A stretch of DNA of 32,000 nucleotides from Candidatus Micrarchaeota archaeon (GTDB lineage Archaea; B1Sed10-29; JAJSAI01), in NCBI GenBank assembly GCA_964625085.1, contig CAZVAJ010000004.1, positions 28,614 to 60,613 on the forward strand. The letters run 5' to 3'. Within the stretch, counting starts at the first letter, position 1. Every line of letters begins with the position of its first letter. Of this stretch, positions 3,367 to 23,265 are shown one piece after another. A model generated the notes under the pieces. That model searched no databases. It had not been told where the DNA came from and was given only the letters and a program-made list of their open reading frames with translations. Both the position numbers and the translations under genes were made by a program.

Positions 3367-3543
3367 ATGACCGACGTTATGGGCACGTGCGATATATGTG
3401 GTAAACCCAGCAGAACTTTATATACCTGCTGGAAATGTGGCAGGAAAGTGTGCCCAGAGCATCATGATCCTGAAACAGGACTGTGCATAGTATGTGCATC
3501 ACAGCTTAAAAAAGGGGGGCCTGCACCTTGGACAAAGAAATAA
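3367..3543 (+). CDS. Small (58 aa) cysteine-rich zinc-finger protein
   Basis: This ORF is not in the supplied track. It reads MTDVMGTCDICGKPSRTLYTCWKCGRKVCPEHHDPETGLCIVCASQLKKGGPAPWTKK. The spacing CxxC-x8-CxxC-x4-C-x2-HH-x7-CxxC suggests a cross-brace two-zinc module. The gene starts 13 nt from the divergent S2P start. Confidence 0.5.
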   Translation: MTDVMGTCDICGKPSRTLYTCWKCGRKVCPEHHDPETGLCIVCASQLKKGGPAPWTKK

Positions 3544-4664
3544 GGAGCATAAGCTTGCTTTCAGGGTGCTCTCCAGAACGGATAAGATCACTCCTAGAAA
3601 AAGGAGTGTTGCAAAGGGTGGGCATGGATCCTGTTTATTACAGATTCAGACACAGACACAGAAAAATAGAAAAAGGCACAGTTATTTTTCCAGAAGAAAA
3701 AGAGATCATAAAAGGGTACCCGAAAATAAGAAGATTGTACACGCTCGAAAAAGGCCTTGGGAAATACTTTCCTAACAGGTTCTATGCAGAGGAAAAGCTT
3801 GATGGTTACAATGTAAGGGTTGCTCTTGTTGGGAATGAAAAGTACGCGCTTACAAGAGGAGGTGTAATCTGCCCGTACACGACTGAAAGGATAAAAAGAC
3901 AGGAAAAACAGGTGGCAGAATTCCTGGAAGAAAACCCTGAAAAAGTGTTGTGCGGAGAAGTGATAGGACTGGAAAACCCCTACCAGGAAAAAAGTTATCC
4001 TGAAGCAAGAGAATTCGGGTACTACATTTTTGACGTTAGGGACAAGAAAACCAACAAACCCCTTCCGGTAGAGAAGCGCAGGCGCGTGCTAGAAGAACAC
4101 AAGGTGAAACAGGTTCCTTTGCTTGGTTTGTTCAGACCGCGTGACTGGAAAAAACTGCTGACAGAAGTTAGAATGCTAGGAAACCAGGGCAGGGAAGGAG
4201 TAGTACTAAAATCTCCTGACATGAAAACAGTGATAAAGTACACAAGCAACCAGAACACGAACAGGGACCTTGAGTACGCTTTCAGATTCTACTCTGACTA
4301 CGGGCAGGCTTTCTTCTTCAGGAGAATAGTCAGAGAAGCTTTCCAGGCGTGGGAAACAGGCCTGGAAGGAAAAGCACTTGAGCAGGAAGCAGCCAGGCTG
4401 GGCAAAAGCATCATGTTTCCAATGGTGCAGACAATTCGGGAGATCGCTAACGGGAAAGAGGTTACAGAAGACTTTACGATAACCATGCCCTCCCGCAAGT
4501 TAGGGGAAGAATTTATCCAGCACCTTGAGCACCTCGGGATAGTCATAAGGGTGAACAAGATAGAAAAAACAAAAGAAGGCTACAAGTTCTGGATAAGCAG
4601 AAGGTACCAGAGCACGAATGACAAAACCAAACATTACATAGACGGAGGGCTTAGCGAGGAATGA
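3528..4664 (+). CDS. ATP-dependent RNA ligase, archaeal Rnl3 (Pab1020-like) family
   Basis: The nucleotidyl-transferase motif I is EEKLDGYNVRV (the KxDG lysine). LTRGGVICPYTTERI and the N-terminal domain are colinear with my recollection of Pyrococcus Pab1020. The start is either TTG 3528 or the in-frame TTG 3555, which is preceded by AAGGAG. Confidence 0.88.
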   Translation: MDKEIRSISLLSGCSPERIRSLLEKGVLQRVGMDPVYYRFRHRHRKIEKGTVIFPEEKEIIKGYPKIRRLYTLEKGLGKYFPNRFYAEEKLDGYNVRVALVGNEKYALTRGGVICPYTTERIKRQEKQVAEFLEENPEKVLCGEVIGLENPYQEKSYPEAREFGYYIFDVRDKKTNKPLPVEKRRRVLEEHKVKQVPLLGLFRPRDWKKLLTEVRMLGNQGREGVVLKSPDMKTVIKYTSNQNTNRDLEYAFRFYSDYGQAFFFRRIVREAFQAWETGLEGKALEQEAARLGKSIMFPMVQTIREIANGKEVTEDFTITMPSRKLGEEFIQHLEHLGIVIRVNKIEKTKEGYKFWISRRYQSTNDKTKHYIDGGLSEE

Positions 4665-4901
4665 GGATCATGCCAAACTAATAAAAAACCCGGAGTCCTT
4701 CTTATCTGGCATGAACTCAAGACTTTCTTGCTAACACTCGAATCCCTAACAGGAAAAAGTAACTGTGTTATATGCGATCAGAAGTCAACCTAAAAAAGAG
4801 CGCGTGCTAAAAATAAAAACAGGCGGCTTCTGACTCTCAAATTTCCTTCGGCATCGTTGCACTAAAATTTTGTCCTGTGGGGAGCATAACAGCGATTATA
4901 T

Positions 4902-16233: not shown

Positions 16234-16379
16234 TTAAAAGTTTTCTTTTTATCCTCGCTGCCTGCAATTGAATACAACAAGTGTCCACTGACCAGATAAA
16301 ACAAAATCCCTGGTTTTTATTCACCGTTTACAAAACCGTAGAACCTAAAACTTTTATACCCCTCCTCCTTTTTATCATC

Positions 16380-17243
16380 ATGAGTCTCAGGAGCGTCAGA
16401 AAAACCGCTGAAAACATAAAAAAGCTCGAGATCCAAGGCGCTAAAAACATAGCCTTGGCAGCAGTCAGATCCCTAAAAAAGGTAAAAGAAAAAGAGTATG
16501 ATCAGGCTGTTTCTCTGCTCAAGGCAAGCAGGCCTACTGAGCCCATGATGCGGAACATTCTGGACTACATAACACACAAAAAGGATGAAGGCTACTCTTT
16601 AAAAGAAGCCATTTCTTTTGCTGAAAAGCTGGCTGAAGACTCTGGAAAAGAGGTAGTAGAAGTTGGAAAAGAAAAGATATTCAACAACTACAAGATCCTG
16701 ACCCACTGCCACTCTAGCACTGTGATGAACATACTGAAAAAAGCCTGGGCAGAAGGCAAGCGGTTTGAAGTGTACGCGTGCGAAGCCAGGCCAAGATACC
16801 AGGGAAGGATAACCGCAAAAGAACTGGCCAAAACAGGAATTCCGGTAACTTTGATAGTAGATTCTGCTGCAAGGTACTACATGAACTATTTTGACATAGT
16901 GCTTGTCGGAGGAGACGCGTTCACGGCCGAAGGATATCTAATAAACAAAGTGGGTACAGGGACTATTGCTCTTGCAGCACATGAAGCAAAAACAGACTTT
17001 GCCGTAGCAATAGAACTCTTAAAGTATGATCCGGCAACAGGTTCAGGAAAACCTGAACCAATAGAAGAAAGAAATCCTAAAGAGGTCTGGGAAAAGCCTC
17101 CTAAAAACGTAAAGATAAAAAACCCTGCCTTTGATGTTACACCCCCAGAGTACATAGACCTCGTAATAACAAACAAAGGAATCACTAACCCGTACAGCAT
17201 ACAACAAATGGCTAAAGAGCACTATCCGTGGCTGGTGAAATAA
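16380..17243 (+). CDS. Ribose-1,5-bisphosphate isomerase (eIF-2B alpha/beta/delta-like family)
   Basis: ILTHCHSSTV (catalytic Cys region), RPRYQGRITAKELAKTGIPVTLIVDSAA, and VGGDAFTAEGYLINKVGT. The gene is colinear with my recollection of the Thermococcus R15P isomerase and lies beside AMP phosphorylase. ATG 16380 lies 22 nt after a TTTTATA box. Confidence 0.82.
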   Translation: MSLRSVRKTAENIKKLEIQGAKNIALAAVRSLKKVKEKEYDQAVSLLKASRPTEPMMRNILDYITHKKDEGYSLKEAISFAEKLAEDSGKEVVEVGKEKIFNNYKILTHCHSSTVMNILKKAWAEGKRFEVYACEARPRYQGRITAKELAKTGIPVTLIVDSAARYYMNYFDIVLVGGDAFTAEGYLINKVGTGTIALAAHEAKTDFAVAIELLKYDPATGSGKPEPIEERNPKEVWEKPPKNVKIKNPAFDVTPPEYIDLVITNKGITNPYSIQQMAKEHYPWLVK

Positions 17244-17244
17244 A

Positions 17245-17532
17245 ATGGAAACAGAGATAATAGAGACCAAAAACGGGGCCGCGCTCGGCATAAAAATAAA
17301 GCTGAGAACAACACCCTTACTATTAATAAAAGCTGAAAAAGGGTACTTGGCTTGCGGGTACTTTAATCCCAACACCATAGAACTCATAGGAGACAGGGCA
17401 GTAATAATCCCAAAGGTATCCTCATTTTCAGAAATGCTGAACAAAAAGCCTGTGTTTGTAAGCAAGGAAGCAAGAAAATTAGGGGCCAGGCTAAACATGA
17501 CCGGGAGGGAGATTCTTGAAATATTCACATGA
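17245..17532 (+). CDS. DUF1805 (YunC-like) protein
   Basis: 95 aa. The pattern PLLLIKAEKGYLACGYFNPNTIELIGDRAVIIPKVSSFSEML...VSKEARKLG is typical of DUF1805. It starts 2 nt after the isomerase stop. Confidence 0.7.
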   Translation: METEIIETKNGAALGIKIKLRTTPLLLIKAEKGYLACGYFNPNTIELIGDRAVIIPKVSSFSEMLNKKPVFVSKEARKLGARLNMTGREILEIFT

Positions 17533-17545
17533 AGACAGCCTGAAA

Positions 17546-19096
17546 ATGGAGCTTACAGCAAAAAGAATGGACCTTCTCTCCGGTGGAAAAAAGATAATCG
17601 TATTGAACAACAAAGACGCGGAATTCTTTGACCTAAAACCAGTGGACAGGGTTAGAATATGGCATGATCACAAAAGCGTGATAGCAATAATAGACATTTC
17701 AGAAAAGTTTGTGAAAAAAGGAACTGCAGGCTGTTTTGAAGAAGTGTTCAAAAGCCTTGGGCTGAAAGAAAAGGACAAAATAAGGGTAGAGCCCGTGCCA
17801 AAACCAGAAACAGTAAACCTGATAAAAGCAAAAATGCAGGGCAGGACCCTCACAAGCCAGGAGATAGACAAGATAATAAAAGATGTTATGGAAGAAAAGC
17901 TTTCTGACATAGAACTGACCGCTTTCATGACAAGCGTCTACATCAGAGGGTTTAACGACGCGGAAACAGTAAGCCTGACAAAAAGCATAGTTAACTCCGG
18001 CACCACCCTAAAGCTGAACAAGGACATAATCTTAGACAAACACTGCATAGGAGGAGTGCCAGGAAACAGGACAACAATGCTGTTAGTACCAATAATAGCG
18101 GGATACGGCATGACAATCCCTAAAACAAGCAGCAGGGCAATCACAAGCCCTGCTGGAACTGCAGACGTGATGGAAGTACTGGCCCCTGTGTCACTAAAAG
18201 AAGAGGAAATAGAAGAAGTGGTGAAAAAAGCCAACGGGTGCATTACATGGGGCGGGGCAGTGAACCTGGCTGCTGCTGACGACAAGCTGATAAGAGTAAG
18301 AGTACCGCTAGGCCTTGATCCTCCTGGAGTACTCCTAGCATCAATAATGGCCAAGAAAAAAGCAGTTGGCGCAACGCATGTGTTAATAGACATACCCATA
18401 GGCAGGGGCGCGAAAATACCTGATGAAGAAAAAGCAAAAGAACTGGCCAGAGACTTCATGGAAATAGGAAGCCAGCTTGACATGAGCATCCACTGCATAA
18501 TAACACCAGGATATGACCCAGTAGGCTTTGCAGTAGGCCCGGCAATAGAAGCAAGAGAAATACTAAGGATACTAGAAGGAAAAAGAGTAAGCACTGACCT
18601 TAGAGATAAAGCAGTAATAATGAGCGGGAAACTCCTAAAAATGAGCGGCAAAACAAGTCAAGAAGAAGGGGAAAAAGCAGCTGAACATCTCATAAGCTCT
18701 GGGAAAGCGCTTGAGAAACTGAAAGAGATTATTGAACTTCAGGGAGGAGACCCAAAAGTCACATCAGACGATGTGCAGGTGGGAGATAAGCAGGTTACTG
18801 TAAAAGCGCATAAGAAAGGGAGGATACAGTACATTAACACAAGATCCATAACAGCTATAGCAAGAGCTGCTGGAGCTCCAAAATCAAAAGGGGCTGGAGT
18901 GTACATGCATGTTGAGAAAGGAGACAAGCTGAAAAGAGGACAGCCCTTGTTCACCATATACGCTGAAAGCGAACAAAAGATTGACGTGGCTCTTGATGTG
19001 ATGAACAGAATGCCGCCAGTAGAATTTGAAAAAGTAATACTAGAAGAACTGTCAACAGAGGAAGAACTGAAACCGTACATGCTTGAATTCCACTAA
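17546..19096 (+). CDS. deoA: AMP phosphorylase (archaeal thymidine-phosphorylase-family enzyme with N-terminal extension)
   Basis: About 516 aa. It has the N-terminal roughly 85-aa domain specific to AMPpase, then DKHCIGGVPGNRTT, SSRAITSPAGTAD, and a C-terminal pyrimidine-nucleoside-phosphorylase domain. ATG 17546 follows the DUF1805 stop. Confidence 0.9.
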   Translation: MELTAKRMDLLSGGKKIIVLNNKDAEFFDLKPVDRVRIWHDHKSVIAIIDISEKFVKKGTAGCFEEVFKSLGLKEKDKIRVEPVPKPETVNLIKAKMQGRTLTSQEIDKIIKDVMEEKLSDIELTAFMTSVYIRGFNDAETVSLTKSIVNSGTTLKLNKDIILDKHCIGGVPGNRTTMLLVPIIAGYGMTIPKTSSRAITSPAGTADVMEVLAPVSLKEEEIEEVVKKANGCITWGGAVNLAAADDKLIRVRVPLGLDPPGVLLASIMAKKKAVGATHVLIDIPIGRGAKIPDEEKAKELARDFMEIGSQLDMSIHCIITPGYDPVGFAVGPAIEAREILRILEGKRVSTDLRDKAVIMSGKLLKMSGKTSQEEGEKAAEHLISSGKALEKLKEIIELQGGDPKVTSDDVQVGDKQVTVKAHKKGRIQYINTRSITAIARAAGAPKSKGAGVYMHVEKGDKLKRGQPLFTIYAESEQKIDVALDVMNRMPPVEFEKVILEELSTEEELKPYMLEFH

Positions 19097-20196: not shown

Positions 20197-20787
20197 TCAC
20201 TTCTTGGATAATTCTTTCAGTAGTTCTGGAAAGCTCTCTGCATGAATGAACCTGATTCCCCACTTGTCAGCCCATTCCATTATTCCCTTGTCCCTGGAAA
20301 CAACTCCTGCGTCAAGCTCTTTTGCAAGAAATAGCACATCAAGATCCTCTTTAGAGTCTACGATTCCCTGCCGCATTATTATCTTGAAATTCTGCCTAAG
20401 CTCTCTAAGCACGATGTCATCAGGCCTGTTTTCCCCCTTCTTGAAAACTGCTTTCTCTGCTTCACGCAGGGCCTTGTTCATCCGGTCCCTTATTTCTGAA
20501 ATGTACTCGTAAACGAACTCGGCAGGAACCATCAGCTCCCTTCTAGAAGGGGACTTCTGAACCAACCGCGCGTCAAGCGTTTTTATGAGCTTTTCAGTGT
20601 ACCCTGACCTCTCGAGCATGCCTTTAAGTTCGTTCCATACTGCCGGGGGAGTGTAACAAGTTATGCTGTGCTTTCTAGCATTGCCCAATAATTTTACCAT
20701 CAGCTTAACGTGCTTCAAGTCAGCTTTTTTTGATTCTCCGACTCCTATAAAAGCACTGGTGTCAATAACAAACCTCTGCCGTTTCAT
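20197..20787 (-). CDS. HARP-type protein-only RNase P (PIN-like; formerly annotated as RNA ligase partner MJ_0950/UPF0278 family)
   Basis: 196 aa. N-terminal FVIDTSAF, then VPAEFVYEYISEIRDRMNKALREAE and RQGIVDSKEDLDVLFLAKELDAGVVSRDKGIMEWADKWGIRFI. These align closely with my recollection of Aquifex aeolicus Aq_880. Confidence 0.82.
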   Translation of the reverse strand: MKRQRFVIDTSAFIGVGESKKADLKHVKLMVKLLGNARKHSITCYTPPAVWNELKGMLERSGYTEKLIKTLDARLVQKSPSRRELMVPAEFVYEYISEIRDRMNKALREAEKAVFKKGENRPDDIVLRELRQNFKIIMRQGIVDSKEDLDVLFLAKELDAGVVSRDKGIMEWADKWGIRFIHAESFPELLKELSKK

Positions 20788-20863
20788 AAGAGAAAAAAAG
20801 GAAACAATGTATTAAAAACGTTCCAGTCAGAAGCCCTGCACCATAAGAAGAACAGAGGGTAAT

Positions 20864-20873
20864 GTTTTTAAAC
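20864..20873 (+). promoter_or_regulatory. TATA-like box (GTTTTTAAAC) for the 5S rRNA gene
   Basis: The box is centred about 27 nt upstream of the inferred 5S 5' end. The same GTTTTTAA core occurs upstream of the divergent HARP gene (20811-20819 on the minus strand) and at 8463-8472. Confidence 0.5.
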
Positions 20874-20894: not shown

Positions 20895-21014
20895 TGCTCG
20901 GCGGCCACAGCGGGCGGGAAACACCCGGTCTCTTTCCGAACCCGGAAGTTAAGCCGTCCAGCGATCTTGTGTGTACTGCCCTCTTGGGCGGGAAAGCAAG
21001 GACGCTGCCGAGCA
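20895..21014 (+). rRNA. 5S ribosomal RNA (archaeal type)
   Basis: The terminal helix pairs GCUCGGCGG with CUGCCGAGC. The conserved CCGAACCCGGAAGUUAAGC and GUACUGCC elements are present. About 120 nt. The ends are approximate to +/-2 nt. Confidence 0.95.
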
Positions 21015-21023: not shown

Positions 21024-21854
21024 TTACACCCCGTACTTTTTTTTCACTTGCTTCCAATCTGGAATAAGCTTAAGCCTGTCTTTCCTCAGCTTTTTGTACT
21101 CTTCCACAGTCAGCCCTGCTGCCTCTGCCCTTTTAGTGACAGCACGCGTAATTGCTTCAGGAGGTTCAAAAAATTCTTTTGCGTACTCTCTTATGCCCTT
21201 GTCCCAGTATTTTTTGGGGTTTTTCGTCTTTGCTATCTCCTGGACCAACTCTTTTTTGAGCTTTTCAAGCGCAGGGTTTTCAAGGGGACTGTACCCTGCA
21301 AACAGTTCGGAAAGCTCTTCCCCGACCACCTGTTCTTTCACTTGGGCATGAAGCTCCTCTGAACTTATGATGGCAGGCCCGTGAGAAGCAAAAGAACCGC
21401 CGCCCTCCTGGTTTTTTTCCTTCAGGAAATGGTCTGAAAGGCGTCTTACGCCGCTGGCCTTTTTTTCAGGCAGGCGTTTTTTAGTGATTATAATATAGTC
21501 AACATCGCTTTCTGGATGAGCGTAACCTCCTGCTCTGCTTCCACTAACAACAATCCCAATAAAATCTGGACCGAGCTCCTGCTTAAGCTTCTCGTGTAAT
21601 TCAGGAAGATCTTTTAGCATAAGTTTTATTGTCCGGCCTTTATCCCTGCTGAGGATTATAGGAAACTTTCTTGTTCTTCTTATCTCTAATTCGCTTTCAG
21701 CCCGCAGTTCATCTATCTTTTTTCGCACATCGTAGTACTCTTCAGGATTCTTGTACTTTCCAAGAGCAAGGTCTTTTTTGGCCTTGTTCTCGAGCAAGTC
21801 CAGTAAATGCTCCCGTACTTTCATCCCGAACGATTTTCTGGTTTTTTTACGCAT
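21024..21854 (-). CDS. Pol-beta-superfamily (minimal) nucleotidyltransferase-domain protein with helical extensions
   Basis: GIVVSGSRAGGYAHPESDVDYIIIT carries the GS...DxD signature. The start is placed at ATG 21854 (or 21824). The K/R-rich extension to 21962 is the alternative-frame reading of the upstream gene's Glu-rich tail. Confidence 0.65.
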   Translation of the reverse strand: MRKKTRKSFGMKVREHLLDLLENKAKKDLALGKYKNPEEYYDVRKKIDELRAESELEIRRTRKFPIILSRDKGRTIKLMLKDLPELHEKLKQELGPDFIGIVVSGSRAGGYAHPESDVDYIIITKKRLPEKKASGVRRLSDHFLKEKNQEGGGSFASHGPAIISSEELHAQVKEQVVGEELSELFAGYSPLENPALEKLKKELVQEIAKTKNPKKYWDKGIREYAKEFFEPPEAITRAVTKRAEAAGLTVEEYKKLRKDRLKLIPDWKQVKKKYGV

Positions 21855-21903
21855 AACCTCACGCGAACCATGCTCCCAAAAGAAGGAAGATTGGAAGGGG
21901 TTT

Positions 21904-23265
21904 TCAGAAGGGCTTGTATTCTTCCTCTTCTGGTGTTTCCTCTTCCTCTTCAGGCATTTCAAGCTCTTCAGGCTTTTTTCTCAAAAGCTTGAGAGAAGCT
22001 ATCAAAAGAACCAACACTACTACAACTATTCCTGCATACAGCAGCGTGTTGTCTGCTTTCGGAACTTCCTCTTCTTCTTCCCCTGTTTCATTAGGCTTGC
22101 TCAAAAGAAGCTCTGTCTTGCTGGCTTTGGGGTTCTCTGCTAGCACGCTCAGGTTGTATAACACTTTTTCTCCTGTTCTTAAGGCAATAGCCTGAGAGCT
22201 AAGCACTTCAGACAACTGCTTGGCATTGGCGTCCTTTATCAGATCATAACAGGCCTTCGCGTTTAGCAAAGTGTCTGCTGCTTCTGAGCCTGTTAGTGAA
22301 AGCGAGGCAGTAACATACTCTTTCGCGCACTTGTAGTACGCATCTTCCCGGATTTTTTTTCCGCTTTCTGTTTTATCCCTGTACATACAGTCTCCTGCGC
22401 TCTTGTATGCTGCACCTGCGTCCTCATACTTTCCAACCTGCTCGTAGATGTTTGCTGCTGCTGCATAGTGTTCCCAGCACTTTTGCATTTCAAGCGTTGT
22501 TTTAGGAGTCTTGTAGCAGCTTCCTGCTCCTGCAGAGTAGTCTGCTATTCTGCTTCCGCTTGTAACATCTATTGCTTTGCCAAAAGCCTGGTCGCATTTT
22601 TCAGGATCTCTTGAATAATCCCTGTAGCAGATTCCTGCTTTTGAATAGTTTTCAGCAGCTTGCGCAGGATATGTTTCTTTTATCAGGTCGCCTAGCGCTT
22701 CGTATACAGGACAAAGTTCCTTTCCGACCCTTCCAGCTTCTCCGTACGCTATTGCATGGTTATAGTACTCTAATGCTGTTGAAGGTTCATTGTTCTGCTC
22801 TGCCTCAACTGCTGCACCAAGAGCTGCTTTAAACGCGTTATCCTCATCTCCTGCGTCCCGGTAGCACTGAAAGGAAACAGAGTATGCTGAAACAGCATCA
22901 TTATGCATGGAAAGTCCTTTGTATAACTCTGCCGCGCTTAAAGCTTCATCGCCGCAGGACCTTGGCTTGTCAGCCCGGTAATACTGTGCTGCAAGCAGGT
23001 AATCCTGAGCAGCCTGCTCTTGCTCTCCTGCGTTAATCAGGTTCTCTGCTGCAAGAGAATAGTACTGCGCTGCTTGCGTGCTCTTACCATCATCCGCGTA
23101 GCATTCTGCAGCCTGCTCGTACGCTGCTGCTGCACTAGAGTAGTCTCCGACCGCGAGCGCGCTCTCTGCACTGTCTATATACTGAGAACATGCTGAAGCA
23201 GCAAAAGAAGCAGTCATGAACACTGCAATTAACAATGTGAAAGCGAGTGGGATTTTTCCTTTCAT
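21904..23265 (-). CDS. Cys-rich SNAP/TPR-like repeat surface protein (signal peptide, C-terminal TM anchor, acidic tail)
   Basis: N-terminal MKGKIPLAFTLLIAVFMTASFAASAC looks like a signal peptide, possibly with a lipobox Cys. Repeated A-x2-Y-x2-AA-x-CY-x-D-x-G helical hairpin motifs follow. There are 12 Cys. The C-terminus has a TM segment (LLYAGIVVVVLVLLIASL) and an EEEEE-rich tail. GGTGG SD precedes the start. Confidence 0.7.
   Translation of the reverse strand: MKGKIPLAFTLLIAVFMTASFAASACSQYIDSAESALAVGDYSSAAAAYEQAAECYADDGKSTQAAQYYSLAAENLINAGEQEQAAQDYLLAAQYYRADKPRSCGDEALSAAELYKGLSMHNDAVSAYSVSFQCYRDAGDEDNAFKAALGAAVEAEQNNEPSTALEYYNHAIAYGEAGRVGKELCPVYEALGDLIKETYPAQAAENYSKAGICYRDYSRDPEKCDQAFGKAIDVTSGSRIADYSAGAGSCYKTPKTTLEMQKCWEHYAAAANIYEQVGKYEDAGAAYKSAGDCMYRDKTESGKKIREDAYYKCAKEYVTASLSLTGSEAADTLLNAKACYDLIKDANAKQLSEVLSSQAIALRTGEKVLYNLSVLAENPKASKTELLLSKPNETGEEEEEVPKADNTLLYAGIVVVVLVLLIASLKLLRKKPEELEMPEEEEETPEEEEYKPF

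Follow-up and report, generated by a model that had tools for sequence, protein, structure and literature searches.

What role is left for HARP, the protein-only RNase P, in an archaeon that also possesses a ribozyme-based enzyme? Knockouts in two model archaea have been silent on this question: loss of HARP from Haloferax or Methanosarcina gave no growth phenotype, and the ribonucleoprotein (RNP) form of RNase P is essential there (PMC10941002, PMC12153264). The question is raised again by a 32,000-nucleotide stretch of archaeal DNA, hereafter the window, which carries an intact 196-aa ORF at 20197-20787 on the minus strand. A sequence-only reading had assigned this PIN-like protein to the Aq_880/HARP family and had asked whether the RNP enzyme still survives in so reduced a genome. 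The source genome (G000) is an assembly of 784,936 bp in 27 contigs, estimated to be 95.6% complete, with a single HARP copy. Our main reading, to which we give a probability of roughly 0.88, is that the ORF encodes a bona fide HARP, present as a second RNase P-type nuclease beside a complete RNP enzyme and tied to an Rnl3-type RNA ligase, and not a replacement for the RNP enzyme.

Family membership was tested under the labels PF08745 (PIN_5), TIGR03875 and COG1458. The PIN_5 profile scored 188 bits (cut-off 27), pairing residues 5-193 of the protein with profile positions 1-203 of 205, and the NCBIfam model TIGR03875, named 'RNA ligase partner', matched at 183.3 bits against a cut-off of 95.3. 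The HARP profiles were therefore matched near end to end and far above their cut-offs. The best sequence matches in the PDB were all deposited as 'RNA-free ribonuclease P', led by 7e8j and 7e8k (E ~3e-34) and by Aq880 (8kd9 and 7f3e; E ~1e-28), with further solved relatives from Hydrogenobacter (8ssf, 8kda) and Halorhodospira (7og5).

The residues on which catalysis depends are likewise in place. The C-terminal half of the protein aligns gap-free with Aq880, and D9, D144, D148 and D166 correspond, again without gaps, to Aq880 D7, D138, D142 and D160, the four essential aspartates of that enzyme (PMC8405995), the last of which is numbered D161 in PMC8266387. D144, D148 and D166 lie within a C-terminal VDSKEDLD...VSRD block, so that the DSKED motif first picked out from the letters is real and none of the catalytic acidic residues is missing from the alignment. 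A basic patch formed by R100, R102, K105, R108, R131, K135 and R139 matches Aq880 R94, R96, K99, R102, R125, R129 and R133, which have been proposed to bind the tRNA elbow (PMC8405995). In an alignment of 26 HARPs, drawn from the source lineage and from distant archaea, the four catalytic aspartates are invariant, as are T10, S145, R131 and R139. An AlphaFold2 model of the monomer, built on the same alignment (pLDDT 87, pTM 0.80), shows a PIN core into which two long helices are inserted, one spanning residues 89-116 and the other 123-139; the diagnostic helical insert that had been recognised from the letters, spanning approximately residues 89-139, is thus borne out by the predicted fold. 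In Foldseek comparisons the model superposed on the solved HARPs 7e8o, 8kda, 8kd9 and 7f3e with TM scores of 0.79-0.84.

A different reading of the same domain would make the ORF the VapC-like toxin of a toxin-antitoxin module, or else a PIN ribonuclease of generic type, and not an RNase P-type enzyme at all. HARPs do fall structurally in the VapC-like PIN_5 cluster, the generic PIN model PF01850 gave a weak, sub-threshold match to the ORF (17 bits), and a toxin-antitoxin arrangement with Rnl3 as the antidote has been discussed (PMC12153264). Against this, profile searches returned PIN_5 and TIGR03875 and not a VapC toxin family, and VapC-type PIN proteins superposed on the model with a TM score of only ~0.42, compared with 0.8 for HARPs. 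Both the insert and the basic patch for the tRNA elbow have been conserved, and the gene is single-copy and holds a fixed chromosomal position across the order, unlike mobile toxin-antitoxin cassettes. No small antitoxin ORF adjoins it, since a 109-bp promoter region and a 5S rRNA gene lie upstream and a 365-aa amidohydrolase gene downstream, and the putative antidote Rnl3 is 15.5 kb away. We therefore regard a toxin as extremely unlikely. Taken together, the profile HMMs, the catalytic residues, the helical insert, the predicted fold and the lack of an antitoxin-like partner gene identify the ORF as a bona fide HARP on every criterion of membership that can be computed.

In its general build the protein resembles Aq880 (7f3e, 8kd9), the Thermococcus celer enzyme 7e8j and the Planctomycetes bacterium enzyme 7e8k/7e8o, to which it is 34-37% identical: it has 196 aa compared with 189-211 aa, a PIN_5 domain with an inserted two-helix domain, the four catalytic aspartates and the Arg/Lys elbow patch. 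HARP activity requires a homo-oligomer, from tetramer to dodecamer. In the solved structures the insert makes dimers and the dimers stack into dodecamers, in which the tRNA elbow is held by the insert patch of one dimer and the 5' leader is removed at the four-aspartate site of an adjacent subunit. By analogy, the window HARP would be a PIN-like, metal-dependent endoribonuclease whose two-helix insert mediates dimerisation, whose dimers would stack into dodecamers as in its homologs, and in which the insert patch of one dimer would hold the tRNA elbow for removal of the 5' leader by the four-aspartate site next to it. Sequence alone is no guarantee of RNase P activity, since four bacterial HARPs formed oligomers yet were inactive on pre-tRNA (PMC12153264).

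The source genome encodes both kinds of RNase P, so the question asked of this reduced genome can be answered with yes. A covariance search placed the RNase P RNA (RF00373) at C10:771-1034, with the whole Rfam model matched at 142 bits against a gathering score of 84. A parallel search for the protein subunits recovered Rpp29 (77 bits), Rpp21 (63.5 bits), Pop5 (59 bits) and Rpp30, and L7Ae is also encoded; all four RNase P proteins and L7Ae are intact ORFs. Rpp30 is short, a 157-aa protein at G000:C4:19095-19565 (= L008:1354-1824) that scores 36.1 bits as a protein against PF01876, for which the cut-off is 35, the match being confined to the C-terminal half of the profile. It directly precedes Pop5 in the order PF01877 protein, Rpp30, Pop5 and proteasome subunit alpha (PsmA), which is the canonical operon; the 157-aa protein may be a minimised subunit. 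In gene content the RNP enzyme is complete, and given the short Rpp30 its full function is assumed from the genes. Since the RNA, the four proteins and L7Ae are all encoded, HARP is not the sole RNase P of the source genome, which is the usual archaeal situation, and an Aquifex-type replacement leaving HARP alone was rejected.

RNase P activity is clearly needed in this organism, because tandem tRNA genes are separated by just 3-15 nt (ARAGORN; C1:100-1000 and C8:4923-5090). Nanoarchaeum, by comparison, has leaderless tRNA genes. ARAGORN called 23 tRNA genes and overlooked at least two tRNA-like 3' ends, which can be seen directly upstream of tRNAs that it did call; with only 23 called, the genome probably has intron-containing or unusual tRNAs that the program did not recognise. 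CCA is encoded in 13 of the 23 detected genes.

It could nevertheless be argued that HARP does most or all of the RNase P work, as in Aquifex, and that the RNA-based enzyme is decaying or a minor relic. The genome is small (785 kb), Rpp30 is truncated and barely clears its cut-off, and some HARP-bearing relatives have no RNase P RNA match, including one that is 90% complete (G002). Yet the RNA of the source genome fits its full model well above the gathering score and the protein subunits and L7Ae are intact. Of the 16 HARP carriers in the order (the source genome included), 12 gave a match to the RNase P RNA, all the misses being incomplete MAGs, and the RNA is kept by a relative that has no HARP (G011). 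Furthermore, the RNP form is essential in the archaea that have been tested (PMC10941002), and the encoded CCA common among these tRNA genes has been reported to slow one HARP ~10-fold (PMC12153264). A HARP-dominated RNase P is accordingly very unlikely here.

The misses deserve a closer description. No credible RNase P RNA match was obtained at E up to 1 in G002, G006, G013, G017 and G021, which are 62-90% complete. The first four belong to the same order as the source genome and carry HARP and Rnl3 with the RNA unmatched; because they are only 62-90% complete, an assembly gap is the probable cause, and a HARP-only state may exist in some relatives of the order.

The coexistence of HARP with a complete RNP enzyme sets our genome apart from Aquifex, which lacks an RNA-based RNase P and in which Aq880 is therefore essential. 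The nearer parallels are Haloferax volcanii and Methanosarcina mazei, each of which likewise holds both RNase P types in one archaeal genome (PMC10941002, PMC12153264), a coexistence that implies an auxiliary or as yet unknown role for HARP in vivo. These are large-genome Euryarchaeota, however, whereas the present host is a vent archaeon of DPANN type with a 0.79-Mb genome, in which a redundant enzyme is less expected. That HARP persists beside a complete RNP RNase P under such strong genome reduction argues against simple redundancy.

We then asked how HARP is distributed among the relatives of the source genome. The authors of a same-genus MAG (G001), which was recovered at the Southwest Indian Ridge from active vent chimneys, placed it in the Iainarchaeota, order B1Sed10-29 (PMC9769843 supplement), and the source lineage is thus a DPANN lineage. 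In a protein atlas the match to HARP had pointed to Microcaldota and that to MCM was uninformative, and we preferred the published placement of the MAG. The phylum was represented by 31 species-level genomes, the class- and phylum-level searches giving the same 31. Within the order, 16 of 18 genomes (17 relatives and the source genome) yielded a HARP, one of these copies being cut off at a contig end (G016). An unrooted maximum-likelihood tree unites all HARPs of the order in a single clade (99/100 support), a result compatible with retention by vertical descent. The HARPs of another family of the same phylum (f10) group in the same unrooted tree with a different, distant archaeal type (100/99 support), which points to two lineages of HARP in this one small phylum, or to its having acquired HARP twice. 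These f10 proteins (L035-L037; G019, G021 and G027) are only 31-32% identical to the window HARP, and their genes are directly convergent with Rnl3.

One relative without HARP, G011, is particularly informative, being 91% complete in 10 contigs with the syntenic site contiguous. There HARP is absent while its usual neighbours, the 5S gene and AMP phosphorylase, have both been retained, and between them, at the position of HARP, lies an unrelated 176-aa ORF (L042:3509-6545; ORF at 4184-4714, plus strand) for which we found neither a Pfam match nor similarity to the HARP profile.

A 2019 survey found HARP absent from all DPANN genomes examined (PMC6380272). The 2025 genome-mining study lists mainly Euryarchaeota, and we found no DPANN name in the available text of its tables (PMC12153264). 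Set against the HARP-free DPANN of the 2019 survey, and against the text of the 2025 tables, a canonical HARP conserved across a DPANN order represents a modest extension of the known range.

The window also contains a gene for an Rnl3-type ATP-dependent RNA ligase of the Pab1020 family, at 3528-4664 on the plus strand. The sequence-only reading had recognised this ligase and noted that it lies 16 kb from HARP; matches to both PF09414 and PF18330 confirm the identification, and the distance is ~15.5 kb, so the two genes are not co-localised. The ligase is nonetheless more relevant to HARP than was then held, because the two genes co-occur almost perfectly in the lineage. Counting a genome as HARP-positive when its match reached E 1e-20 or better (the G016 match alone fell short of full length), and treating the figures as counts over related genomes with no statistical test applied, we found Rnl3 (PF18330) in 28 of 29 HARP-positive and in 0 of 32 HARP-negative genomes among the 61 searched. 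The one HARP-positive genome without the ligase is a MAG of 67% completeness in which a contig end truncates HARP. In G011, the relative that lacks HARP, a PF18330 search did not find Rnl3 either. The physical distance between the genes varies: they are adjacent and convergent in G031 and in the three f10 genomes (G019, G021, G027), and ~4.5-5.2 kb apart in three genomes of the order (G007, G002, G009).

This pattern agrees with the association described by Seshadri and Gopalan (mBio 2025), who found the ligase in 89% of HARP genomes and HARP in all ligase genomes (PMC12153264): Rnl3 is present in our genome too, and the co-occurrence is reproduced across the 61 genomes, in a lineage that their paper does not discuss. 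The window pair differs from the co-localised pairs of that study, defined by a spacing of < 5 kb, in being 15.5 kb apart. The near-perfect tracking of Rnl3, together with a relative that has neither gene, gives independent support to the ligase-partner hypothesis put forward in 2025, although the two genes could also occur together because vent habitats select for both, with no joint pathway behind the pattern. Among the substrates proposed for a HARP-plus-ligase pathway are C/D-box sRNAs, and since fibrillarin as well as L7Ae is present in the source genome, such substrates are plausible here.

Returning to the reading of HARP as a second nuclease tied to the ligase, the RNA-based enzyme would most likely carry out the bulk of tRNA 5' maturation, and HARP would not be the housekeeping RNase P. 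HARP appears to have been kept by vertical descent across the order and to be gained and lost together with Rnl3; it therefore probably serves in a specialised or back-up step of RNA 5'-end processing linked to the ligase. A more specific proposal can be made, which we regard as tentative and would back at somewhat less than even odds: that HARP and Rnl3 in these streamlined, RNP-keeping DPANN genomes constitute a two-enzyme RNA-processing module, inherited and lost as a unit, with a function distinct from housekeeping tRNA 5' maturation, for example the trimming and circularising of C/D-box or other small RNAs. If this is true, the retention of the pair in genomes of 0.6-0.9 Mb would be strong evidence for a non-redundant role of HARP, and the lineage would be a natural setting in which the HARP question could be tested cleanly. 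Neither a new type of enzyme nor a new mechanism is revealed by the present analysis; what it adds is phylogenetic, in the DPANN occurrence, and comparative, in the retention of HARP by reduced genomes and its joint gain and loss with Rnl3.

The immediate neighbours of HARP could also hold clues to its function. Downstream, a 365-aa amidohydrolase of the TRZ/ATZ or nucleoside-deaminase-like kind (PF01979; 19093-20190, minus strand) begins 6 bp after the HARP stop codon on the same strand. The two genes had been described as co-transcribed, and the short gap and shared strand stand; the coupling itself is limited to one genus. Only in the source genome and its same-genus MAG (G000 and G001) is the amidohydrolase wedged between AMP phosphorylase and HARP, so that co-transcription is possible but genus-specific. 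A conserved HARP-amidohydrolase operon was rejected, as elsewhere HARP is directly convergent with AMP phosphorylase. As a nucleobase- or nucleoside-deaminase-like enzyme, the amidohydrolase would in our view fit the AMP-salvage genes better than HARP. These salvage genes, encoding ribose-1,5-bisphosphate isomerase (IF-2B family), a DUF1805 protein and AMP phosphorylase (16281-19096, plus strand), converge on HARP and form its conserved syntenic anchor across the order; in 11 of the 16 HARP loci examined in relatives, HARP is directly convergent with the cluster or close to it. DUF1805 always lies between the isomerase and AMP phosphorylase across the order, and may be an unrecognised component of the pathway.

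Upstream, HARP is divergent from a 5S rRNA gene, as had been read from the letters; it lies at 20897-21013 on the plus strand (RF00001, 82.8 bits), with a spacer of 109 bp. This spacer holds two TATA-like boxes. The first, TTTTTAAT (20811-20818, minus strand), lies 24-31 nt upstream of the HARP ATG and is likely to be HARP's own promoter, giving a leaderless or short-leader mRNA. The second, TTTTTAAA (20865-20872, plus strand), lies 25-32 nt upstream of the 5S rRNA 5' end and is likely to be the 5S promoter, leaving little or no 5' leader. Their placement suggests that the HARP and 5S promoters stand back-to-back. A scan for sigma-70-type promoters and terminators gave counts at shuffle level and says little about an archaeon.

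Such an arrangement might suggest that HARP is functionally tied to the 5S gene, for instance in processing the 5S precursor. Indeed, of the 16 genomes of the order that carry HARP (the source genome included), 7, drawn from four families, have a 5S gene ~70-1000 bp from the HARP 5' end, divergent or co-directional. However, G011 keeps its 5S gene at the same site although HARP has given way to the unrelated 176-aa ORF, and the adjacency therefore belongs to the locus and not to HARP. The position of the TATA-like box would leave no obvious leader on the 5S transcript to be cut, and HARP loci outside the order have no 5S neighbour. We consequently rejected a functional coupling between HARP and the 5S gene, which we consider highly unlikely. 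On the far side of the 5S gene, two further proteins are encoded in the window at 21024-23265. One, of 312 aa, matches the nucleotidyltransferase domain PF01909 weakly, and its gene converges on the 5S gene. The other, encoded beside it, is a SNAP/TPR-like protein of 453 aa that is rich in Ala and Tyr and has a membrane anchor at its C-terminus as well as an acidic tail; it is conserved in the same-genus MAG (G001) and weakly so in G005.
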